Source of the DNA: Mustelus asterias
Lineage: Eukaryota
Assembly (NCBI RefSeq): GCF_964213995.1
Contig: NC_135821.1
Location: 77,562,001 to 77,626,000, forward strand
Reading direction: 5' to 3'
Length of the DNA stretch: 64,000 bases
The notes under the pieces are model-generated. The model did no database searches, was not told the DNA's origin, and saw nothing but the letters and a program-made list of their open reading frames with translations. Made by a program: the position numbers and the translations under genes. Of this stretch, positions 23,448 to 56,761 are shown piece by piece (the stretch's first letter is position 1; every line of letters starts with the position of its first letter).

Positions 23448-23647
23448 TCAGAAGTCAAAAGTGGTTTTAAACCTTCCACTTTTTTCTGGATAGCTATTGA
23501 TGTAACAGTAAGAACCATTCGAAGTTTGCAATTTAACTCACGAGTTTTAGTTGGTTCCTAATGCAAGGCAATCATTACACGGGAACCTTTGGACATTTGG
23601 CTCCTGGAAAATTCAAAGTTATGTAAAACAGACTGTCTGAGGCACAC

Positions 23648-23945
23648 AGCCTCCCCACAAAACTGCCCACGCCCCACCTTACCAAAACCTAGCCTCTCCA
23701 CAAAACTGCCCACACCCCACCTTACCAAAGCCCAGCCTCCCCATAAAACTACCCACACCCCACCTTACCAAAGCCCAGCCTCCCCATAAAACTACCCACA
23801 CCCCACCTTACCAAAACCCAGCCTCTCCATAAAACTGCCCACGCCCCACCTTACCAAAGCCCAGCCTCCCCATAAAACTACCCACACCCCACCTTACCAA
23901 AACCCAGCCTCTCCACAAAACTGCCCACGCCCCACCTTATCCAAG
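23648..23945. repeat. Minisatellite, about 7 x 43 bp
   Basis: Unit cagcctccccataaaactacccacaccccaccttaccaaa[a/g]cc. Confidence 0.95.
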
Positions 23946-24064
23946 ACCACTGACCCAGCTCTTAGAGGATCAGCATGGATATTACGTGGGAATGTCCAGG
24001 AAAATAGCGATGTTAACACAAATCAACAGCAGTACAATGTGAATGCAGGGTTTTTCACTAAATC

Positions 24065-27247: not shown

Positions 27248-27772
27248 TTCAGGGTTTTAGATATCTGGACCATTGGGATCTCTTCCGGGGCAGGTGGGAC
27301 CTGTACAAGAAGGACAGGTTGCATTTAAACTGGAAGGGCATAAATATTCTGGCCGGGAGGTTTGCTAGTGTCACACAGCAGGATTTAAACTAGTTTGGCA
27401 GGGGGGTGGGAATCAAAGCAAAGGTGAATTAACTGAAGGGGAACTAGAGAGTAGGGCCAGTCAGACTCGGAGAAAGAGCAAGCAGGGTGTGGTTGCTGAT
27501 CAAAGAGGGTCTGGTGGACTGAAGTGCATTTATTTCAATGCAAGAAGTGTAACAGGTAAAGCAGATGAACTTACAGCTTGGAACTATGATGTTGTTGCTA
27601 TTACAGGGACTTGGTTATGGGAAGGAGGTGGTATTGGGGTTCTTGAGAAACATTAAGGTAGCCAAGTCCCCAGGGTCTGATGGGATATACCCCAGAATAC
27701 TGAGAGGGGCAAGAGAGGAAATTGCTGGGGCCTTGAGAAATCTTTGTATCCTCACTGGCTACAAGGGAGGTC

Positions 27773-40700: not shown

Positions 40701-41982
40701 CAGCCACATTCAGCAAATTAAAAACAAACCGTCACCATTGCGGCTTCTTTAGAGACACAAAATCTGATTGATCCCAGCCAGAAATAGATGTGCTCCACCC
40801 ACATCAGCACCCCACCCCCTTCACAAATGGTACATAGTTAATTTAAAATGTTCCAAGTCAATCTACTAAAAATCCCATGCACGAAACAAAAGATCGCATC
40901 ACCGGGAGCACTGTGTGCTTGTTCACACAGCTTCAATTCTGCTCTTTGTTACTGCCTAATTCTTTCAAGGCTATTGTGCTACAGGCAACAGTTGCTGCCT
41001 AGTACCTAGTTTGATAATTTGTGTGCGAGACTAGACAGGAAGTATTGACATGGAGGGTGGTAGGGGAAGGGGGGAAGGATGGGGAAAACGGCATCACAGC
41101 TGAATCTGATCATGCTGTCAACCAGCACACACACACACTTTGCAGGTGGGGACACTGGATGGCATTTAGGAGCAGAAACCTTGACTGATTTTCCCCTCGA
41201 CAATGAGGCTAAGTTTCCCACTCCAACAATTGCACTGCCTGAAAGCAGCTCACTCGGTCAGTACAGCTCGGAAATTAAATTTCAAACCTTCTTGGTCATT
41301 ATGGCTCAGCTCCAGACTAGACTATTTATTAACTGAGCTATTGGAGGAAGCTTGCTTGTGTATTGCATACACATGTATATATTATATTATAAAAGCAAAT
41401 GTATTATTGGGCCAAAATTGCTTATTTTTCCAGAACTTCTGCTACCAAAAAATAAACACGTTTAATTTTTGCATGTCAGATATTGATGAGGTTGACAAAA
41501 TGTAAATTACATTTTTGATATTAGTCAAATTAAGGGTTTTACATAACTCAAACCACTGGATATCCAAGGGGCCGGGGGAAATGTCATGATATGTAATTAA
41601 AAGATTCTGACCCATAGTGAAAACTGCAAAGGACAAATCTCATGTAATTTATGAACATCTGCAGGACCAAGTGGCTAAATTGCCATTTCTAATACTTTAC
41701 TTTATGAAATACATGTGAAATGTTGCTGAAAAGAACATTTATAAAAATCTATTGTTGTCACTTCCCTCAGAGGTCAATGGTAACATTACAACAGTACAAC
41801 AAACTGATTAATCCCTCATTAAATACATACTGTGGTGCAGCAACTAGAACACCGCTGTATAATTGGTGACAATGCTGGTCGTCATAATTCTTGAAAACAT
41901 TCAATATTAGAAACTAGCATCCTATTAGGCATCATTCTGATTATACATTAACCAACCTGTCATTCATGGAGAATATTTTAAA

Positions 41983-42508
41983 CACAGTAAGAAGTTTAAC
42001 AACACCAGGTTAAAGTCCAACAGGTTTATTTGGTAGCAAAAGCCACACAAGCTTTCGGAGCTCTAAGCCCCTTCTTCAGGTGAGTGGGAATTCTGTTCAC
42101 AAACAGAGCTTATAAAGACACAGACTCAATTTACATGAATAATGGTTGGAATGCGAATACTTACAACTAATCAAGTCTTTAAGAAACAAAACAATGTGAG
42201 TGGAGAGAGCATCAAGACAGGCTAAAAAGATGTGTATTGTCTCCAGGCAAGACAGCCAGTGAAACTCTGCAGGTCCACGCAACTGTGGGAGTTACAAGTA
42301 GTGTGACATGAACCCAATATCCCGGTTGAGGCCGTCCTCGTGTGTGCGGAACTTGGCTATCAGTTTCTGCTCAGCGACTCTGCGCTGTCGTGTGTCGCGA
42401 AGGCCGCCTTGGAGAACGCTTACCCGAATATCAGAGGCCGAATGCTCGTGACCGCTGAAGTGCTCCCCAACAGGAAGAGAACAGTCTTGCCTGGTGATTG
42501 TCGAGCGG
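41983..42508 (-). mobile_element. Young Penelope-like element, 5'-truncated
   Basis: RSTITRQDCSLPVGEHF...VAEQKLIAKFRTHEDGLN; nearly identical to the arms at 46466-47734; probable TSD tttaaa at 41977-41982 and 42509-42514. Confidence 0.92.
42043..42088 (-). ncRNA. Minimal type I hammerhead ribozyme motif in the PLE pLTR
   Basis: Minus strand CAC-CUGAAGA-A-GGGGC-uuaga-GCUCC-GAAA-G-CUU/GUG. Confidence 0.75.
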
Positions 42509-44053
42509 TTTAAAAACATGGCCACAATATCTAAAGACCAGATTGTTAAGATGACCATTCTGTTCTCCATCCAAACTAGTCTGCTGTCAGTGATCACAGG
42601 ATAGTCTATCTCAGGTGGCCCTGTATTCATACAGCCTCAGAACTTTATCAGCAATAGATTGGACAGCAACAAGCACTAATGCAGCATGCAAAGTTCACTG
42701 CTTTATTTTCCTTTTAATATTGATGAACTGAAATTTCAATTTTTTACAAAGGCAATTAATTGAAGGCGGAACTACAAACTTAATATTTGAAAAAAATCTA
42801 CAAAATTTAATGGTATAGACATTTTCTTACTCCATCATTTTTCGCAACTTTTCTTTTGAAACTAATTTTCTTCAATTCAGTCCCCTTCTGCTTCCCACCT
42901 CCCCCCGCCCCCCCCCCCCCCCCCCCCCAACCCAAGTCACCACTATTTCTTCTTCCCTAAACAGTAGAAGCAGTTAGCTATCCATTACAGTGCTGGAATG
43001 TAGTAAACTGCACAATGATTCCAACACAAGGTTTCCATTACCACCAGCATGGTAAACAGAACAGCCAGGAAAATAAAACCACCTGGTTCTGTTCAGGGAG
43101 AGCTCAGAATATCCTGACTCTGTGCACCAAGACAGCCTTCAGAAAGCACAGACCGATAAAGCCAAAAAACATGTTACTGCTTCCAACAAATGGAGTTTCA
43201 TTTGTTTTATAGTTCACTTTGACAGATCACAGCATCTGTTTTGCTAGTGGAAACATTTTTTAAAAAGCAAATGGAACGTAGATTAATTAAGAATGTGAAT
43301 GAATAAATATACATTGTCCTCTTGCTCCACATTACAACTACTTTGCTTTAAAAGACTAAAGCTTAGTGGCATATTATCATAGCAACGAAACATGCTGCAT
43401 TAAACATTTTTCCGCAGCAGGATTAACTTGATTTCAACCAGATCCACCTATAGATTTGAATTAGTTTGAAACGCATGAGTTTTTTAAAAAAAGGAACCAA
43501 TCTTCCAAGCTGCAATGCCCACATTTATTGCAAGACAAGTAAATCATTTCTTCCTATATAGATGTAGTTAGTAAAGTAACGATTATAAAGTCTCCTCTCA
43601 CTCCAAGCTGTGAGAACATATTGAAGTTGCTGCATCAAAGTCAATTTGAGGAATGCAGAGTTTGCATATTCATGTCACTGACCATCAAGCTGTCAATGAT
43701 GGAATCAAAGCCTGGAGACAAAGATCACAAGTTGGTCTGCATTGCAGCTGTAGGGTAAGTTTGCACTTTGAGTGGAAAAGTCCAAAACTGCAGAAATAAG
43801 AATTTAAACTGCAGTTACCTTCTATGTAGTATTTAAAGAATCAGTGAAATAACCTACAGCACCTACCACCAAAAGCCAGGTCCTTGCGAGAAAAAGTCAC
43901 AGGTTACTTTGAAAGCATAAGGAGTGGCTGGTCTTATTAATGTTGAAGGTAACAAGCTGGAGGAGGCTGACCTGCACTGTGGCCCAAACAGTTTTTCATC
44001 TCAGAGTGAATAAACATATCATGCACTCCACACAGTAACAATCCACTCAAAGG

Positions 44054-45402: not shown

Positions 45403-46525
45403 AAAAGGCTACCAAACAAAGAACAAAGAACAATACAGCACAGGAACAGGCCCTTCGGCCCTCCAAGCCTGCGCCGCTCATGTGCCCACTAGACCATTCT
45501 TTTGTATCCCTCTATTCCCAGTCTGTTCATGTGGCTATCTAGATAAGTCTTAAACGATCCCAGCATGTCCGCCGCAATCACCTTGCTTGGCAGTGCATTC
45601 CAGGCCCCCACCACCCTCTGTGTAAAATACATCCCCCTGACATCTGTGTTGCCCCCCTCACCTTGAACCCGTGACCCCTTGTGTTCGTCACCTCCGACGT
45701 GGGAAAAAGCTTCCCACTGTTCACCCTATCTATGCTCTTCATTATTTTATACACCTCTATTAGGTCGCCCCTCATCCTCCGTCTTTCCAGTGAGAACAAC
45801 CCCAGTTTACCCAATCTCTCCTCATAGCGAAGACCCTCCATACCAGGCAACACCCTGGTGAACCTCCTCTGTACTATCTCCAAAGCCTCCACGTCCTTCT
45901 GGTAGTGTGGCAACCAGAACTGGATGCAGTATTCCAAATGTGGCCTAACCATCGTACTATACAGCTGCAACATCATATGCCAACTTTTATATTCCATGCC
46001 CCGTCCAATAAAGGCAAGCATGCCATATGCCTTCTTGACCACCCTCTCCACCTGTGCTGCCACTTTTAAGGATCTGTGGACTTGTACCCCCAGGTCCCTC
46101 TGTGTGTCTATACTCCTGATGGTTCTGCCATTTATTGCATAGCTCCCCCCTTACATTAGATCTACCGAAATGCATCACTTCGCATTTATCTGGATTAAAT
46201 TCCTTCTGCCATTTCTCCGCCCAATGTTCCAGCCTATGTATATCCTGCTGTATTCTCTGACAACGTTCATCACTATCCGCAACTCCAGCAATCTTCGTGT
46301 CGTCCGCAAACTTACTGATCACACCAGTTACATCTTCCTCCAAATCATTTATAAATATCACAAACAGCAGAGGTCCCAGTACAGAGCCCTGCGGAACACC
46401 ACTAGTCACAGACCTCCAACTGGAAAAAGACCCCTCCACTGCTACCCTCTGTCTTCTATGGCTAACACAGTAAGAAGCTTAACAACACCAGGTTAAAGTC
46501 CAACAGGTTTATTTGGTAGCAAAAG

Positions 46526-46571
46526 CCACACAAGCTTTCGGAGCTCTAAGCCCCTTCTTCAGGTGAGTGGG
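46526..46571 (-). ncRNA. Minimal hammerhead ribozyme motif (left arm)
   Basis: Same motif as 42043-42088. Confidence 0.75.
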
Positions 46572-46774
46572 AATTCTGTTCACAAACAGAGCTTATAAAG
46601 ACACAGACTCAATTTACATGAATAATGGTTGGAATGCGAATACTTACAACTAATCAAGTCTTTAAGAAACAAAACAATGGGAGTGGAGAGAGCATCAAGA
46701 CAGGCTAAAAAGATGTGTATTGTCTCCAGGCAAGACAGCCAGTGAAACTCTGCAGGTCCACGCAACTGTGGGAG

Positions 46775-47092
46775 TTACAAGTAGTGTGACATGAACCCAA
46801 TATCCCGGTTGAGGCCGTCCTCATGTGTGCGGAACTTGGCTATCAGTTTCTGCTCAGCGACTCTGCGCTGTCGTGTGTCGCGAAGGCCGCCTTGGAGAAC
46901 GCTTACCCGAATATCAGAGGCCGAATGCCCGTGACCGCTGAAGTGCTCCCCAACAGGAAGAGAACAGTCTTGCCTGGTGATTGTCGAGCGGTGTTCATTC
47001 ATCCGTTGTCGCAGCGTCTGCATAGTTTCCCCAATGTACCATGCCTCGGGACATCCTTTCTTGCAGCGTATCAGGTAGACAACGTTGGCCGA
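46775..47092 (-). pseudogene. PLE GIY-YIG endonuclease domain (C-terminus of the PLE ORF; RT absent)
   Basis: SANVVY.IRC...C....YIGET...LRQRMNEH...HF...E...GLN: GIY-YIG motif with CCHH residues; the S.NVVY form resembles Neptune-clade PLEs. Confidence 0.9.
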
Positions 47093-47591
47093 TACGCTGC
47101 AAGAAAGGATGTCCCGAGGCATGGTACATTGGGGAAACTATGCAGACGCTGCGACAACGGATGAATGAACACCGCTCGACAATCACCAGGCAAGACTGTT
47201 CTCTTCCTGTTGGGGAGCACTTCAGCGGTCACGGGCATTCGGCCTCTGATATTCGGGTAAGCGTTCTCCAAGGCGGCCTTCGCGACACACGACAGCGCAG
47301 AGTCGCTGAGCAGAAACTGATAGCCAAGTTCCGCACACACGAGGACGGCCTCAACCGGGATATTGGGTTCATGTCACACTACTTGTAACTCCCACAGTTG
47401 CGTGGACCTGCAGAGTTTCACTGGCTGTCTTGTCTGGAGACAATACACATCTTTTTAGCCTGTCTTGATGCTCTCTCCACTCCCATTGTTTTGTTTCTTA
47501 AAGACTTGATTAGTTGTAAGTATTCGCATTCCAACCATTATTCATGTAAATTGAGTCTGTGTCTTTATAAGCTCTGTTTGTGAACAGAATT

Positions 47592-47638
47592 CCCACTCAC
47601 CTGAAGAAGGGGCTTAGAGCTTCGAAAGCTTGTGTGGC
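47592..47638 (+). ncRNA. Minimal hammerhead ribozyme motif (right arm)
   Basis: CUGAAGA 47601-47607, stem II ggggc/gcuuc, GAAA 47624-47627, palindromic AAGCUU, predicted cut after 47631, GUG pairing with CAC 47598-47600. Confidence 0.75.
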
Positions 47639-48867
47639 TTTTGCTACCAAATAAACCTGTTGGACTTTAACCTGGTGTTGTTAAACTTCTTACTGTGTTT
47701 ACCCCAGTCCAACGCCGGCATCTCCACATCATGACTTCTATGGCTAAGCCAGTTCTCCACCCATCTAGCTAGCTCACCTTTTATCCCGTGAGATTTAACC
47801 TTTTGCACCAGCCTGCCCTTCGGCCCTCCAAGCCTGCGTCTCTTGTCAAACGCTTTACTAAAAACCATATAGACGACATCTATGGCCCTTCCCTCGTCAA
47901 TCGTTTTTGTCACCTCCTCAAAAAACTCAACCAAATTCGTGAGGCATGACTTCCCTCATACAAAATCATGCTGTCTATCGCTAATGAGATTATTCAGTTC
48001 TAAATGCGCATATATCCTATCTCTAAGAATCTTCAACAACTTCCCTACCACGGACGTCAAGCTCACCGACCTATAATTACCCGGGTTATCCTTGCTACCC
48101 TTCTTAAATAACGGGACCACTGGTCCTAAATTTACAAGTTCCTCTTTTCATCAAGTGATCAGCATATGCAATGATTTCCAAGTAGGGTAGTGAAGGTAAA
48201 ATTCCTAGAATTGTTTAAGAAGCAGTTGGATAAAGCAAAGAGATCTTTCTGGTTGGACAAAGGTAGAACGTTGATACAGTTACTGTTTACAAAATGTCAA
48301 CAAATCAGGAAAACTGGTCATTAAACAAAATGAATCAATTTTTCTCATGAGACATTAATCTCAAGGTTTTCTGGATTTTTGTATTCACTACATCTTAGAA
48401 GATGCCAGTATAAGTCAATAGCCTGTGATTTGATGACAAAGTTAAAAATCACCTGTCATTAACATTGAAAAATAATTTCTTCCTCATATTGTCTGATTTT
48501 AATCCAGTTGACAAAGTGGCCAACATTTTGTAAACTGGGTTAGTGAGCCAGGTCAGTACGTTATGGTCATGGTCATATTAACATATTTTAAAAATTTGTT
48601 ACAGATTTCTAAGTTCATGCAAGTGAAAAGCTACTCATGGGGATTGAGAACTAGCTTCAGTACCAAGCGCCCTCCAGTAAGAACTTTACTACAGCAGTAT
48701 AGAGTAAAGTGCACTATATTCTGCAGCAATTAACACCGTGCTTTAATTGTGCCTTTAAAGAGCAACTAAACAACAACTTGTATTTATATAGTGCCTTTAA
48801 TGTAATAAAATGTTCCAAGGTGCTTCACAGGCACATTATAAAACAAAATATGACAACAAGGCACTGA

Positions 48868-49866
48868 TTATTTTTATTCATTAATGGGACATGGCCATCA
48901 GTGGCCAGGCCAAGATTTATTGCCCATCTTTAACACTCTTAAAATGGCGATGGTAAGCAAACTTCATCACCCACTGCAGTTCATCTGATGGAGGTACATT
49001 CACAGTGCTGTTAGGGAGGGAGTTCCAGGAGTTTGGCCAAGCGACAGTGATAGAACAGTGATATATTTCCAATTCAGGATTGTGATTGACTTGGAGGGAA
49101 ACTTGCAGGTGGTAGCGTTCCCATGCATCTGTTGCCCTTGTCCTTCTAGCTGATAGAGGTTGAGGGTTTGGAAGATGGTGTCAAAGGAGCTTGGTAATAC
49201 CATTGAATGTCAATGTGATATTGTTAGATTCTCTCTTGTTGGATACAATCATCGCCTGCCTGACACTTGTGTGGCATGAATGTTATTTGCCAGTTGTCAA
49301 CACCAGCCTGAATATTGTCTGGGTCTTGCTACACATGCACATGGACATAGACATGGATGGTTTGTATCTGAGGTTTTGAAGACAGAGCTGAACATAGTAC
49401 GTTCTGAGGATTGCACAGTTACCTTACAGAATGTCATTGACAAAACGGCTGAAGATGGTTGTGCCTAGGACACTATCCTGAGGAACTCCTGCAGTGATAC
49501 TCTGGGACTGAGATGATTAACAAACAACCACAGCTATCTTTCTTAATGCTAGGTATGGCTCCAACCAGTGGAAAGTTTTCTCACTGATTGCCATTGAATT
49601 TACTTTTGCTAGCACTCCTTGATGTCACATTTGGTCAAATATTGCCTTGATATCAAGAGCAGTCACTCTCACCTCATGAGTTCAGCTCTTTTGTCTATGT
49701 TTGGACCAAGGCTGTAATAGGGTCAGGAGCTGAGTGGCCCTGGCAGAATCCAAACTGATCATTAGTGCGCAGGTTATTGCCGAGACAAGGACCACTTGAT
49801 AGCACCGTCAATGACCCCTTCCAAAATTTTGATGATGTTTAGATAGATTGATGGGGCGATAATTGG
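48868..49866 (-). mobile_element. Family-B LINE, 3' portion with deletions
   Basis: Tail tttttattcattaatgggacat...atttattgcccatc; reverse strand AGVPQDSVLG and LDIKAIFDQM. Confidence 0.8.
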
Positions 49867-49867
49867 T

Positions 49868-50090
49868 CATAGGGCAATGTTAGACAGAAGACTATGAACT
49901 TGAACAAATAGGTGGGACTTAAAGAGTGTCTGAAAGAGGGAAAGAGAGGTTGAGAGGTTTAGGGAAGGAATTCCAGAGCTTAGCCCACAGGCAGCTGAAG
50001 ACAGGGCCACCAATTGTGGAGCAATTAAAATCAGGGATGGGCAGAATGCAGGAATTAGAAGAGGGCAAATACCTTGGAAAGTTGTGGGGG
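49868..50090 (-). mobile_element. L2 LINE 3' fragment
   Basis: GGPVFSCLWAKLWNSFPKPL; homologous to 17150-17350. Confidence 0.75.
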
Positions 50091-50854
50091 AGAACAAAGA
50101 ACAAAGAACAAAGAAAATGACAGCACAGGAACAGGCCCTTCGGCCCTCCAAGCCTGCACAGAACATGCTGCCCGACTTAACTAAAACTCCCTACCCTTCC
50201 GGGGACCATATCCCTCTATTCTCATCCTATTCATGTACTTGTCAAGATGCCCCTTAAAAGTCACTACCGTATCTGCTTCCACTACCTCCTCCGGTAACGA
50301 GTTCCAGGCACCCACCACTCTGTGTAAAAAATCTGCCTCGTACATTTCCTTTAAACCTTGCCCCTCACACCTTAAACCTATGCCCCCGAGTAATTGACTC
50401 TTCCACCCTGGGAAAAAGCTTCTGACTATCCACTCTGTCCATGTCTCTCATAATCTTGTAGACTTCTATCAGGTCGCCCCTCAACCTCCGTCGCTCCAGT
50501 GAGAACAAACCACGTTTCTCCAACCTCTCCTCATAGCTAATGCCCTCCATACCAGGTTACATCCTGGTAAATCTTTTCTGTACCCTCTCCAAAGCCTCGA
50601 CATCCTACTGGTAGTGTGGCGACCAGAATAAAACACTATATTCCAAGTGTAGCCGAACTAAGGTTCTTATAAAGCTGCAACATGACTTGCCAATTTTTAA
50701 ACTCAATGCCTCGGCCGATGAAGGCAAGCATGCCATTGTTCAACCGGAGCAAGGCAGAGAGGAGCGATTTGTAGCTGGAGTAAAAAGAGTAAGGGATTGA
50801 CTTTTTTTCCCTTACTTTTTCGTGGGGTTTCTTTTTTTTTTCCTAGTTTAAGTG

Positions 50855-51055
50855 AAAAGCGGAAGTAGGCCGGCCGCGGGATGACCTGGGAAGGAATTTT
50901 TTATTTTTTTTTTATAAGCGCGCGGGAGGTTTAAAAAGCAGGCCGCACTATCCAGCGGGCAACGTCGTTAGCGGGCAGCGAAGTGAGCAGGTAGCAGAGT
51001 GAGGGCTGAAGGGCTTTGGTTCAACGGGCTTAGGCGGAAACGGGCAAGGCAGGGT
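50855..51055 (+). promoter_or_regulatory. CpG-rich CR1 5' UTR, likely internal promoter
   Basis: Dense CpG in a CpG-poor window; ETS-like GCGGAAGT at 50859-50866. Confidence 0.45.
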
Positions 51056-51107
51056 AGGTTTAGTTCTTAGTTTTTAAAAACTTAAAAACAAAACCAATCA
51101 AATAAGG

Positions 51108-52046
51108 ATGGAGGGTCAGGTGATGTGTTGTTCCTGCATGATGTGGGAGCTGGTGGACCCCATTGTGGTTCCCAGTGAACATGTCTGCAGTAAGTGTTGG
51201 TTGCTTGAGGAACTCCGGCTCAGGGTTGATGAGCTGGATTCTGAGCTTCGGACACTGCGACACATCAGGGAGGGGGAGAGATACCTGGATGCTGTGTTTC
51301 AGGAGGCAGTCACACCCCTTAGACTAACTAACTTGAATTCAGTCAGTGGTCAGGGGCAAGAGGGTTTGGCTGCGAGTGAGGCAGGTAGTGGGATCCAGGA
51401 GGTAGAGTTCCAGGAGCCTCAGTCCCTGAACCTGTCCAACAGGTTCGAGATTCTTGTTCTGTGTGTGGACGGGAACGGGGAGTGCAGGGAGGATGAGCAA
51501 ACTGACCACAGCACCATGGTACAGGGAGCCGTTCAAGTGGGGGGAGAAAAAAGAAATGTAGTCGTAATTGGGGAGAGTATAGTTAGGGGCATTGACACTG
51601 TTCTCTGTGACCAGGATCGAGAATCCCGAAGATTGTGTTGCTTGCCTGGTGCTCGGGTCCAGGATATCTCATGTGGGCTGCAGAGGAACTTGGAGTGGGA
51701 GGGTAAAAATCCAGTTGTCGTGGTCCACGTAGGTACCAACGACATAGGTAGAACAGGAACAGAGGTTCTGCTACGGGAATATGAAAAGCTAGGAGCTAAA
51801 TTAAAAAGCAGAACCAAAAAGGTAATAATCTCTGGATTACTACCTGAGCCACGAGTGAATTGGTGCAGGGTCAATAAGATTAAGGAGGAAAATGCGTGGC
51901 TCAAAGATTGGTGTGGGAGGAATGGGTTTGAATTCATGGGACATTGGCACCAGTATTGGGGAAGAGGGGACCTGTTCCGATGGGATGGTATTCATCTGAA
52001 TCGTGCTGGGACCAGAGTCCTGGCGAATCATATAAGTCGGCTGTAG
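51108..52046 (+). CDS. CR1 ORF1p: Zn finger, leucine zipper and SGNH/GDSL esterase domain; open frame of 312 aa
   Basis: CxxC...CxxC (CCSC...CSKC); LEELRLRVDELDSELRTL; VIGESIVR (block I), HVGTNDI (block III), DGIH (block V). Confidence 0.9.
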   Translation: MEGQVMCCSCMMWELVDPIVVPSEHVCSKCWLLEELRLRVDELDSELRTLRHIREGERYLDAVFQEAVTPLRLTNLNSVSGQGQEGLAASEAGSGIQEVEFQEPQSLNLSNRFEILVLCVDGNGECREDEQTDHSTMVQGAVQVGGEKRNVVVIGESIVRGIDTVLCDQDRESRRLCCLPGARVQDISCGLQRNLEWEGKNPVVVVHVGTNDIGRTGTEVLLREYEKLGAKLKSRTKKVIISGLLPEPRVNWCRVNKIKEENAWLKDWCGRNGFEFMGHWHQYWGRGDLFRWDGIHLNRAGTRVLANHISRL

Positions 52047-52275
52047 ATAGGGCTTTAAACTAAATAGTGTGTGTTTGGGGGGGGGGGGGTTCAGTTGTAT
52101 GGAGAATTAGAAAATCAAAGGTAAAGGAGAGGGTAGGAATGCAGGTTAATGATGAGGACTTTCAACAAGTTAAAGGAGCCGAGGGCTCAGGAGAGGTTAG
52201 TAAAGTTTCCAGACCACGTAATAGAACAGAGTATAGAAGGTGGCAGGAATCTAGACCTCAGGCAGAGTAAAAAAG

Positions 52276-55234
52276 GTGACAAGCATGAGAAGGGAGGTGG
52301 TCAACACAGTGCAAGGAGATGGTCTGGGGAAGAATAACCAGTCTGTGACAGGAAGGGACGGAGCATGCAAACAAAGGAATGCACGTAGCATTCGAAACAA
52401 AGTGAATGAATTGACGGCACAAATCAGTGCAAATGGGTATGATCTAGTGGCCATTACAGAAACGTGGTTGCAGGGTGACCAGGACTGGGAACTAAATATC
52501 CAGGGGTATCAGACAATTCGGAAGGATAGACAGAAAGGAAAAGGAAGTGGGGTAGCTCTGTTAATTAAGGATATCAGGGCGGTAGTGAGAGATGATATAG
52601 GCTCTAAGGAGCAAAATGTGGAATCAATGTGGGTGGAGATAAGAAATAGTAACGGGAAAAAGTCACTGGCGAGCGTAGTCTATAGGCCCCCAAATAATAA
52701 CTTCAAGGTGGGGCGGGCTATAAACAAACAAATAACAGATGCATGTAAAAATGAAACAGCAATAATCATGGGGGATTTTAACCTCTATATTGATTGGTCA
52801 ACTCAAGTCGGACGCGGTGGACTTGAGGAAGTTCTTAGAATGCTGTTGCGATAGTTTCCTCGAACAGCATGTTCCAGAACCTACGAGGGAGCAAGCTATC
52901 TTGGATCTGGTCCTGTGTAATGAGACAGGTAAAATTAATAATCTCCTTGAGAGGGATCCTCTTGGAATGAGTGATCACAATATGGTTCAATTTCTAATAC
53001 AGATGGAGGGTGAGAAAGTAGGGTCCCAAACCAGTGTCCTCTGCTTGAACAAGGGGGATTACAATAGGATGAGGGCGGAGTTGGCTAATGTAGACTGGGA
53101 ACACAGACTAATTGGTGGAACAGTTGAGGAACAGTGGAGGATTTTTAAGGAGATTTTTCTCAGTACTCAGCAAAAATATATTCCAGTGAAAAAGGAGGAA
53201 TGTAAGAAAAGGGATAACCAGCCATGGATAACTAAGGAAATAAAGGAGAGTATCAAATTAAAGACCAATGCATACAGAGAGGCCAAAATTAGTGGGGAAC
53301 TAGAAGATTGGGAAGGCTTTAAAAAACAATAAAGAACTACTAAGAAAGCAATAAAGGAAAGATAGATTATGAAAGTAAACTAGCACAAAATATAAAAACT
53401 GATAGTAAAAGTTTTTACAAATATATAAAACGGAAAAGAGTGGCTAAAGTAAATGTTGGTCCCTTAGATGATGAGAAGGGGGATTTAATAATAGGAAACG
53501 AGGAAATGGCCGAGGCCTTAAACAAGCTTTTTGTGTCAGTCTTCACAGTGGAGGACACAAATAGCATACCAATAATTGACGGTCATGGGACTGTCGGGGG
53601 TGAGGACCTTAAAACGATCACTATTACTAAAGAGGTAGTGCTGGGTAGGCTAATGGGACTAAAGGTAGACAAGTCCCCTGGTCCAGATGGAATGCATCCC
53701 AGGGTACTAAAAGAAACGGCAGAAGCAATAACAAATGCATTAGTTGTAATTTATCAAAATTCACTGGACTCTGGGGAGGTCACAGTAAGAAGTTTAACAA
53801 CACCAGGTTAAAGTCCAACAGGTTTATTTGGTAGCAAAAGCCACACTGGGGAGGTGCCAGCTGATTGGAAAACAGCTAATGTAACACCACTGTTTAAAAA
53901 AGGAGGTAGACAAAAGGCAGGTAACTACAGGCCGGTTAGCTTAACATCCGTAGTTGGAAAAATGCTGGAATCTATCATTAAGGAAGAAATAGCAGGACAC
54001 CTGGAAAAGAATGGTTCAATCAAGCAGACGCAGCATGGATTCATGAAGGGATAGTCGTGTTTGACTAATTTACTGGAATTTTTTGAGGATATAACGAATG
54101 CGGTTGACAGAGGGGAACCGATGGATGTGGTGTATTTAGATTTCCAGAAGTCATTCGATAAGGTGCCTCACAAAAGGTTGCTGCATAAGACAAAGGTACA
54201 CCGAGTTGGGGGTAAAGTGTTAGCGTGGATTGATGATTGGCTATCTAACAGAAAGCAGAGAGTTGGAATAAATGGGTGCTTTTCCGGTTGGCAATCAGTG
54301 ACTAGTGGCATGCCGCAGGAATCAGTGCTGGGGCCTCAACTATTTACCATATACATAGACGATCTGGAGGAGGGAGCCGAGTGTAGGGTAAAAAAGTTTA
54401 CGGATGGCACAAAGATGAGTGGGAAAGCAAATTGCGTGGAGGACACAGAGTCTGCAGAGAGATTTGGATAGGCTAAGTGAGTGGGAAAGGATCTGGCAGA
54501 TGGAGTGTAACGTTGGTAAGTGTGAGGTTATCCACTTTGGAAGGAATAATAATAAAATGGACTATTATTTAAATGGTGAAAAATTACAACATGCTACTGT
54601 GCAGAGGGACCTGGGGATCCTTGTGCATGAATCGCAAAAACTCAGTTTGCAGGTGCAGCAGGTAATCAAGAAGGCAAATGGACTGTTGGCCTTTATCGAG
54701 AGAGGGATGGAGTATAAAAGCAGGGAGGTTATGCTGCAACTGTACAGGGTACTGGTGAGGCCGCACCTGGAATACTGTGTACAATTTTGGTCCCCTTATT
54801 TAAGAAAGGATATATTAGCTTTGGAGGGGGTACAGAGAAGGTTCACCAGGTTGATTCCGGAGATGAGGGGATTTGCTTATGAGGAGAGATTGAGTAGACT
54901 GGGCCTGTACTCATTGGAGTTTAGAAGGTTGAGGGGAGATCTTATAGAGACATATAAGATAATGAAGGGGCTCGACAGGGTAGAAGCAGCAAGGTTATTT
55001 CCACTTACAATGGAAACAAGAACTAGGGGGCATAGCCTCAAAATACGGGGGAGTCAATTGAGAACAGAGTTGAGGAGGAACTTCTTCTCCCAGAGGGTAG
55101 TGAATCTTTGGAATTCTCTGCCCAATGAAGCAGTAGAGGCTACCTCGTTAAATGTGTTTAAGTCACAGATAGATAGATTTTTAACCATTAAGGGAATTAA
55201 GGGTTATGGGGAGTGGGCGGGTAAGTGGAACTGA
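52276..55234 (+). pseudogene. CR1 ORF2 (APE endonuclease plus RT), disrupted by frameshifts, stops and a 65-bp PLE insert
   Basis: NARS, AITETWL, YRPP, GDFN, LDLVL, SDH; KSPGPDG, NYRPVSL, DFQKSFD, FTDG (mutated FADD). Confidence 0.92.
53781..53845 (-). mobile_element. 65-bp young PLE-tail insertion with a 10-bp TSD
   Basis: TSD ctggggaggt at 53771-53780 and 53846-53855. Confidence 0.92.
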
Positions 55235-55775
55235 ACCCACACTCAGATCAGCCACGGTCTATTTGAATGGCGGAGCAGGCTTGAGGGGCTAGATGGCCTA
55301 CTCCTGCTCCTATTTCTTATGTCCTTATGCCGTATGCCTTCTTGACTACCTTCTCCACCTGCATTTCCACTTTCAGTGACCTGTGTACCTGTACACCCAG
55401 ATCCCTCTGCCTATCAATACTCTTAAGGGTTCTGCCATTTACTGTATATTTCCTATCTGCATTAGACCTTCCAAAATGCATTACCTCACATTTGTCCGGA
55501 TTAAAACTCCATCTGCCATCTCTCCGCCCAAGTCTCCAACTGATCTATATCCTGCTGTATCCTCTGATGGTCCTCATCGCTATCCGCAAATCCACCAACC
55601 TTTGTGTCGTCCGCAAACTTGCTAATCAATCCAGTTACATTTTCCTCCAAATCATTTATATATATATTACAAACAGCAAAGGTCCCAGCACTGATCCCTG
55701 AGGAACACCACTTGTCACAGCCCTCCATTCAGAAACACACCCTTCCACTGCTACCTTCTGTCTTCTTTGACCAAG

Positions 55776-55944
55776 ATGTGGAGATGCTGGCATTGGCCTG
55801 GGGTAAACACAGTAAGAAGTTTAACAACACCAGGTTAAAGTCCAACAGATTTATTTGGTAGCAAAAGCCACCTTTTGCTACCAAAGTGGCTTTTGCTACC
55901 AAATAAACCTGTTGGACTTTAACCTGGTGTTGTTAAACTTCTTA
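55776..55944. mobile_element. Young PLE-terminus fold-back insertion with a 13-14-bp TSD
   Basis: TSD cttctttgaccaa(g) at 55762-55775 and 55945-55958; arms invert at gccac/gtggc with a duplicated cttttgctaccaaa filler. Confidence 0.92.
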
Positions 55945-56694
55945 CTTCTTTGACCAAGCCAGTTTTCTATCCACCTTGCTAGCTCACCTCTGATCCCATG
56001 CAACTTCATCTTCTGCACCAGTCTGCCACGATGCCACTTCCTATCAGAAGTGGCATCAAGCAAGGATGTGTGTGTTTGCACCCACTCTTTTCTCCAATTT
56101 CCAAGTGGTCATCCCCAACATGTTAATCCAAAAAGGATCAGGTCTATGTTTTAAGGAATTCTTTCCTTTTATTTCCTACCCCATAGAGTTTGCACCCTGA
56201 ATTCGCACCTCCCTCTATCACAGCTGTCAGTCATAAATCATTCTGCATATTATAAACATTGTAAAAAGGTAAATAATGCCTATTTTGGTAATAATTCCAC
56301 ATATTTAAACATATGGTCTAAAATATGCTTTAAAAATGGCTTTAACTTTCACTTGTGCAACATCGTGATTGCAAAGATTTTTGTAGGAAACATAAGATTT
56401 TGTTGCTATATACATCATGGCCTGTCACTCAATTGGGGTGGCATGATATGGATGCAAGTTGAACGCAGTCACTAGTATATCTCTACTGACTGTACGTCCA
56501 CATCATGCTCCAGTGATTAACAGTTCTCAGCACTAATATCGCCACAAATCTTGGATAACTACAGAAACAAGGAGAATGTTACACCTCTTTGTTTACTGTT
56601 AAATGTTATTAAATTATTTAATTTTTATTTGTTCGAACTGCGAGAAATGGTATTTCCTAACTCCGTCAAAGCTGCCTCTGGGTCAGCAATGTGA

Positions 56695-56761
56695 TGATGT
56701 GGAGATGCCGGCGTTGGACTGGGGTAAACACAGTAAGAAGTTTAACAACACCAGGTTATGA
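56695..56761 (-). mobile_element. 67-bp young PLE-tail insertion in unique DNA, 11-bp TSD
   Basis: TSD cagcaatgtga at 56684-56694 and 56762-56772. Confidence 0.92.

Follow-up and report, generated by a model that had tools for sequence, protein, structure and literature searches.

A palindromic target motif and a recurrently used CR1 position in insertions of a Neptune-type Penelope-like element from the shark Mustelus asterias

Inverted arms, tails and short target site duplications (TSDs) are already known traits of Penelope-like elements (PLEs), and the origin of the inverted arms and of the one-sided tail has been named as needing mechanistic work in the available text of Craig et al. (2021, PMC8557442). 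According to the same text, the Neptune clade of endonuclease-bearing (EN+) PLEs has an insertion bias for microsatellites, attributed to a CX2-5CxxC linker, which is common to Neptune and Nematis; a microsatellite preference of PLEs also appears in the accessible part of PMC9977147. For PAc, a Poseidon element of Anolis carolinensis, cutting and extension of both strands were described, together with two starts of reverse transcription that bound the tail and a dimer predicted by AlphaFold2 (Frangieh et al. 2024, PMC11167929, available sections). Regarding the shark family presented here, we consider it likely that a Neptune-type PLE inserts at the palindromic sequence (c)TGnn-N12-nnCA(g) with a TSD of about 12 bp, likely by means of symmetric GIY-YIG nicks (probably of a dimer) and with both 3' ends likely serving as primers.

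Two insertions at the same aligned position of CR1

The window, by which we mean the whole stretch of 64,000 nucleotides analysed, contains two inserts that are inverted fragments of a Neptune-type PLE and that occupy the same aligned CR1 position. Insertion 1 is bordered by exact direct repeats of CTTCTATGGCTAA (46453-46465 and 47735-47747) and insertion 2 by those of CTTCTTTGACCAA (55762-55774 and 55945-55957), the maximal repeats being 13 bp and 14 bp long, respectively. After in silico removal of the inserts, both hosts are minus-strand CR1 reverse transcriptase (RT) in register, one of them reading ENWLSHRRQRVAVEG; exact repeats and RT register thus agree with the preliminary description, which had placed both TSDs on the same aligned bases of two CR1 copies. 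The label CR1 itself is presumed, being taken from that description and from familiar motifs. The insert sizes given there (1.27 kb and 169 bp) were measured as 1,269 bp and 169 bp, or 170 bp if an ambiguous G is counted as element. The claimed 13-bp footprint holds as a shared site, but not in its length, which is 12 (+/-1) bp: a 12-nt core is invariant (46454-46465 and 55763-55774), and the extra C, plus the G in insertion 2, also continue the element ends and are therefore ambiguous. The tail was said to lie on opposite sides, and indeed CATCTCCACATC lies on the right in insert 1 (47719-47730, plus strand), at its end, and on the left in insert 2, again at the end (55775-55786, minus strand). 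The features of both loci are as follows.

45729..47900, minus strand: host CR1 copy 1 (RT region; minimum extent), broken at N-W-L-S-H-R-R-Q (inverted matches I3, I6 and I7 with further CR1 copies; translation)
46449..46453, plus strand: left half-site CTGTC of target 1, with TG at -4/-3 (sequence; site score)
46454..46465, plus strand: 12-nt TSD core, left copy, insertion 1 (the C at 46453 is ambiguous)
46464..47072, minus strand: PLE arm, antisense, to the short (tail-less) 3' end (inverted repeat I1; blastn)
47091..47734, plus strand: PLE arm, sense, with the end of the GIY-YIG ORF, 3' UTR/pLTR and tail (inverted repeat; blastn)
47092..47388, plus strand: putative C-terminal GIY-YIG endonuclease fragment of the PLE ORF (translation; weak Pfam match; C-terminus as in the ORF of copy L163)
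47601..47627, plus strand: candidate hammerhead-like core CTGAAGA...GAAA (motif letters)
47694..47734, plus strand: PLE tail of about 41 nt between the short and the long 3' end, reaching into the ORF start codon
47736..47747, plus strand: 12-nt TSD core, right copy, insertion 1
47748..47752, plus strand: right half-site GCCAG of target 1, with CA at +3/+4
55327..56030, minus strand: host CR1 copy 2, broken at N-W-L-G-Q-R-R-Q (inverted matches I15, I17 and I18; translation)
55758..55762, plus strand: left half-site CTGTC of target 2
55763..55774, plus strand: 12-nt TSD core, left copy, insertion 2
55775..55871, minus strand: PLE arm, antisense, from the tail
55886..55945, plus strand: PLE arm, sense, to the short 3' end
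55946..55957, plus strand: 12-nt TSD core, right copy, insertion 2
55958..55962, plus strand: right half-site GCCAG of target 2

The two hosts share 82.7% identity over 313 aligned columns on one side of the site and 78.6% over 70 on the other, too little for a recent duplication. Insert 1 forms an inverted repeat of 609 nt with 99% identity; compared with hosts that are about 83% identical, the two insertions are thus young, and the CR1 copies that received them are older and distinct. Read mapping at the window locus gave a 183-nt skip joint that stems from empty paralogous sites; it is silent on polymorphism of the locus itself, because the reads of all repeat copies pile up there. A tandem array of 43-nt units is located at 23604-23990 of the window.

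The element and the architecture of its insertions

An intact ORF of 892 aa, comprising RT and a C-terminal EN, is present in copy L163 (2643-5321, minus strand), preceded by a partial upstream pLTR and followed by a downstream pLTR that stops at the short end; continuing activity of the family is possible. Pfam recovered RVT_1 (E 2.7e-10) and, weakly and below the cut-off, GIY-YIG (E 0.005, for the window fragment at 47092-47388). The best Foldseek matches of the 892-aa monomer model (pLDDT 90) are telomerase RTs (TERT), and a PDB sequence search with a 61-sequence profile returned 0 matches at E <= 0.1. A CX4CX2C linker (C754, C759, C762) and a CCHH motif (C797, C801, H837, H843) show a conservation of at least 0.98 each in 61 homologs, and Y793, Y806, G808, R817, E867 and N882 are conserved in this alignment as well. 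The traits of EN+ PLEs are present, namely a single ORF with a telomerase-related RT and a GIY-YIG EN, a pLTR containing the ORF start, inverted 5'-truncated arms and a tail of about 41 nt at one end, as are the Neptune traits of a CX2-5CxxC linker before GIY-YIG and a CCHH motif. Judged by the features described in PMC8557442 (available part), the element, which the preliminary description had not recognised as a PLE, is assigned to the Neptune type, an assignment made from sequence. Its closest named homologs come from sharks (up to 95% identity), those of turtles being about 45% (44-47%) identical. For the hammerhead-like core letters at 47601-47627, Rfam gave no hammerhead match; its 15 matches at E <= 1 all stayed under the gathering score and were mostly miRNA models on the inverted repeat, and the RNA fold of the 150-nt end region was no better than that of shuffles (z = +1.0).

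The genome (3.68 Gb) contains 19,037 exact 51-nt PLE tails and 93,519 tails of 14 nt. In several copies (L004, L021, L078 and L108; also in L010 and L011) the alignment to the window arm is interrupted each time at positions 278/294; these copies may form a subfamily that carries additional sequence close to the end of the ORF.

A typical insertion consists of a TSD, an antisense arm starting from the tail, an inversion, a sense arm that stops about 40 nt short of the tail, and the second TSD; a median of 104 element bases is common to both arms (56 loci), and the tail continues into the ORF start. TSD lengths were computed after allowing for bases common to the element ends, in an unselected sample (the first 100 exact tails on contig C1, covering its first 16.4 Mb and the youngest subfamily) as well as at the CR1 site of the two window insertions, hereafter the hotspot. 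A length of 12 bp fits 58 of the 61 unselected TSDs, compared to 36 for 13 bp and 53 for 11 bp, and in 23 of the 61 the longest possible TSD is 12. At the hotspot, 12 bp fits 20/21 in orientation A and 18/20 in orientation B; the nick on the tail side could in some cases be at 13. Loci without a two-ended TSD call were excluded (29/90 unselected and 19/60 hotspot loci), most of these 19 being without a short end within 1.5 kb, and two-tailed insertions were uncountable because the TSD calls needed a short far end. Three PLE inserts in the window have a single arm (53781-53846, 41979-42509 and 56694-56758); two of these lack a tail and begin with the short end, and the third consists of the tail arm only, which shows that some events leave a single arm. 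One PLE insertion (L030/L094, G000:C1:3485000-3488400) is compound: it contains an internal pLTR-ORF start, and its outer ends fall within the same CR1 hotspot.

Target motif and the share of insertions in CR1

Away from the hotspot, the insertions share the palindromic motif (c)TGnn-N12-nnCA(g), with TG-N16-CA centred on the TSD in 40 of 58 cases; the remaining 18 sites are without a perfect TG-N16-CA. Spacings of 17 (9), 15 (4) and 14 (4) were also counted among the 58, in a tally made without any 12-nt assumption, and TSD-sized spacings of 11 or 13 occur as well. In 33 uniquely placed sites, from which four hotspot sites had been removed, the frequencies are 0.79 for T at -4, 0.88 for G at -3, 0.85 for C at +3 and 0.79 for A at +4, with weaker preferences for C at -5, G at +5, K at -2 and M at +2. 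TG and CA are both present in 18 of the 26 sites without alignment to the CR1 copies of the window (the non-CR1 set), as against 353 of 63,976 window positions (0.55%). The listed target sites are not simple repeats, and a microsatellite insertion bias is absent from them. The CR1 codons for W-L-x-x-R-R-Q read CTGGC-N12-GACAG, and both reconstructed window targets score 11.3 bits, a value reached by 5e-5 of the window positions. Ten held-out loci, inspected by eye, comprised several that fit at 12, two at 11 or 13 and two with one half-site. The majority bases of loose read ends comprise CTG at -18..-16, ahead of the tail, in runs X21 (12,986 reads) and X18 (230 contigs); in X21 they also include CAG at +15..+17, beyond the short end. 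This register is as the motif predicts, a hint only, with an agreement of 0.36-0.38 and source organisms that perhaps are the species of the window. Cuts fixed by the target and free orientation, as at a symmetric site, had been proposed from the two window insertions, and this proposal is supported: scattered edges, a single orientation and a shared duplication, the three conditions that would have spoken against it, were each checked, and none of them applies. It has also gained in scope, since the symmetric motif is directly visible and characterises the PLE family throughout the genome.

At the CR1 site, 1,142 tail junctions were counted for one orientation and 2,180 for the opposite one (1:1.9); the two search patterns differ in sensitivity, and a bias of up to about 2:1 is possible. 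An insertion restricted to one orientation is in any case not what is found. Neither are the edges scattered, as only 3 junctions fall within 0-10 nt past an 11-nt anchor just downstream, compared with the 1,142 at the site. Inside the core, 112 junctions were counted with an 8-nt anchor against a rough chance figure of 110, part of these rows being CR1 junctions shortened by AGA microhomology. With 105,643 empty CR1 sites the occupancy is 3.0%, and the hotspot accounts for about 3.6% of the 93,519 tails, roughly 1,200-fold above the uniform expectation; this share is approximate, because its numerator was obtained with a 12-nt tail and restrictive CR1 patterns and its denominator with a 14-nt tail. 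In the unselected sample, 5/100 copies sit at the CR1 site (L001, L006, L007, L033 and L164; CI 1.6-11.3%).

It could be argued that such numbers arise from looser processes. Inserts in repeats are neutral and survive, an established principle that may raise the share of inserts found there; as the explanation of the hotspot, loose insertion followed by retention is highly improbable, for it can yield neither the single-base precision of 1,142 junctions versus 3 nor a palindromic motif at non-CR1 sites. Multiplication of a few PLE-bearing CR1 copies, by retrotransposition or segmental duplication, would fit the frequent recurrence of some TSD cores, as large CR1 subfamilies would give. Inserts that share a core, however, are of different lengths (103-1,228 bp for the called ones) and have different inversion points; both orientations and many CR1 subfamilies occur, as do at least 3 PLE end variants, and the window hosts are 83% identical compared to 99% between arms of separate PLE copies, all of which renders such an amplification exceedingly improbable. 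Of the 60 hotspot loci fetched, 41 had two-ended TSD calls, and these are heterogeneous in their CR1 subfamilies and PLE end variants as well as in length and inversion point. Segmental duplication, a concern already raised in the preliminary description, is rejected for the hotspot loci on account of differing inserts, differing subfamilies and host divergence, the 60 loci differing in CR1 subfamily, insert length and inversion point.

More attention should be drawn to the possibility that the PLE has evolved a CR1-specific targeting, a safe harbour recognised by sequence beyond the short motif. Three to five per cent of all copies reside at one CR1 position, 13/62 unselected TSD sites aligned to the CR1 copies of the window, and a first prediction of the CR1 share from motif strength, based on 7 empty sites and 6-nt half-sites, gave 0.5-1.3%, less than the observed share. 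That estimate has been superseded, owing to sample size, by one with 100 sites: a matrix built from the 26 non-CR1 sites and applied to 100 listed empty CR1 sites predicts on its own a share of 4.0% (60 bootstraps: 1.8-7.8%), compared to the observed 3.6%, or 5/100. Motif strength multiplied by CR1 copy number is thus in rough agreement with the observed share. Since about 95% of the copies lie elsewhere, and other motif-fitting CR1 positions as well as other repeats are also used repeatedly, CR1-specific targeting seems very unlikely to us. The cause of the hotspot resides in the element rather than in CR1, which passively carries a near-optimal site in high copy number; thousands of copies sit at the CR1 site because one spot of CR1 matches the PLE signature so well, and given the motif the hotspot follows from simple arithmetic. 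The conserved CR1 codons thereby act as a sink: among CR1 copies matching the site pattern, about 3% are interrupted at this one position.

The fit of the matrix is uneven in its details. GGCAG was predicted at 25% and seen in 10/100, AGCAG predicted at 1% and seen in 11/100. Natural variation of the CR1 site otherwise follows the motif: in hand tallies of occupied and empty CR1 rows, C at -5 occurs in 83/100 versus 61/100 (p 0.0009) and G at +5 in 99/100 versus 85/100 (p 0.0003). The age of CR1 subfamilies is a possible confounder of these misfits and tests alike.

A second CR1 hotspot, at S-L-x-T/S-G-E-V-P, holds two insertions in the window (27760-27771 and 53769-53780). It fits the motif and has 463 tail junctions genome-wide in one orientation, nearly all junction rows being in the same 2-nt microhomology register. 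Among the 100 unselected copies, further repeat positions were used two or three times (L062 and L089; L027, L032 and L057; L040 and L172/L173); these correspond to the CR1 3' end, another repeat and CR1 V-T-S-G-V-P-Q-G, each of them motif-like.

Proposed mechanism and comparison with known systems

The insertions have a symmetric motif, a TSD of 12 (+/-1) bp, a two-armed inversion and RNA 3' ends at both junctions. On this basis, we propose that the GIY-YIG nuclease would nick both strands, each time two bases 5' of a CA, and that the stagger of 12 nt would leave 12-nt 3' overhangs, as follows from the geometry of target-primed reverse transcription on a sense RNA template. Priming by one 3'-OH would then begin at the tail end, that by the other some 40 nt further upstream, and the two cDNAs would join at the inversion; the junction bases suggest that 1-2 nt of microhomology may set the exact start of reverse transcription. 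The tail can be on either side because symmetric nicks would each prime reverse transcription, and orientation would be free because in a symmetric site either strand can take the tail. With a stagger of 12 nt, the two scissile bonds would point to roughly the same side of the helix, and the nuclease may well be dimeric, with sequential nicking or two independent complexes giving the same footprint as a dimer. An antisense template is argued for in the available text of PMC3846280, in which case the polarity argument would change and the motif would not.

Instead of the protein alone, RNA-DNA pairing could help to set the nicks. Both 3' start regions are half-site-like (CTGTG ahead of the short end, ATGAC where the tail ends), and many orientation-A junctions have the in-register form GTCAT. 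The starts of reverse transcription vary by about 10 nt at both ends, however, while the target edges are fixed, and in-register tail junctions are a minority (about 7/61 unselected sites, by eye), making a contribution of the element RNA to target choice very unlikely. In the window, the half-site-like start regions are at 47689-47697 (CTGTG) and 47726-47734 (ATGAC), and given this resemblance in-register junctions would rebuild a half-site beside the TSD.

Returning to nicks set by the protein, we regard the chances as evenly balanced that this shark Neptune-type family has a bipartite palindromic target resembling that of a restriction enzyme, in which a dimeric RT-GIY-YIG complex would recognise, on a single face of the DNA, two CA(G) half-sites spaced by roughly a helical turn, leave 12-nt 3' overhangs and prime from both ends, at the tail start and at the short start. 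If true, the target signature would expose the geometry behind the inverted-plus-tail architecture of all PLEs, and it apparently is undescribed. No palindromic PLE motif or PLE hotspot in CR1 was found in searches of the literature, and Repbase reports or subscription papers may note it; the available parts of PMC12774661, PMC12910113 and bioRxiv 10.64898/2026.07.22.740005 mention neither. Exact predictions for nicks, stagger and priming can be drawn from this family, which is young, has about 90,000 tails as well as an intact ORF, and uses a sharply defined symmetric target.

Compared to the microsatellite bias of the Neptune clade (PMC8557442, available part), the shark family has a non-repetitive palindromic TG-N16-CA and a near-fixed 12-bp TSD. 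The data on PAc agree with our proposal in two-strand cutting, two starts of reverse transcription and a predicted dimer; PAc differs in its clade and in an AT-rich preference (5'-ATT-3'), and the accessible sections describe no fixed stagger or bipartite symmetric motif (PMC11167929). Penelope elements of Adineta vaga resemble the shark PLE in their inverted pLTRs, an optional 31-bp tail, TSDs of 8-10 bp and one copy inside a LINE, as the shark PLE in CR1, but they have few copies, and no target consensus or hotspot is described in the available text (PMC3846280). I-TevI and I-BmoI share the GIY-YIG domain and a short tolerant cleavage motif, but this is CNNNG or NNNNG, with nicks 2 nt apart and beside a long binding site (PMC12774661, available part). 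In the shark PLE, in contrast, two half-sites surround a 12-nt stagger. Twin priming of L1, in which both target ends prime cDNA, also results in an inversion; L1 arms are not known to overlap, whereas those of the shark PLE overlap by a median of 104 element bases. Strictly site-specific R2-like retrotransposons have nearly all copies at one site, as opposed to about 3.6-5% of the shark PLE at the CR1 site. In the P element a palindromic target gives free orientation, and symmetric target and free orientation are common to both, but the P element is a DNA transposon with a DNA transposase; a non-LTR-type element, too, can have a palindromic specificity like that of a DNA transposon.
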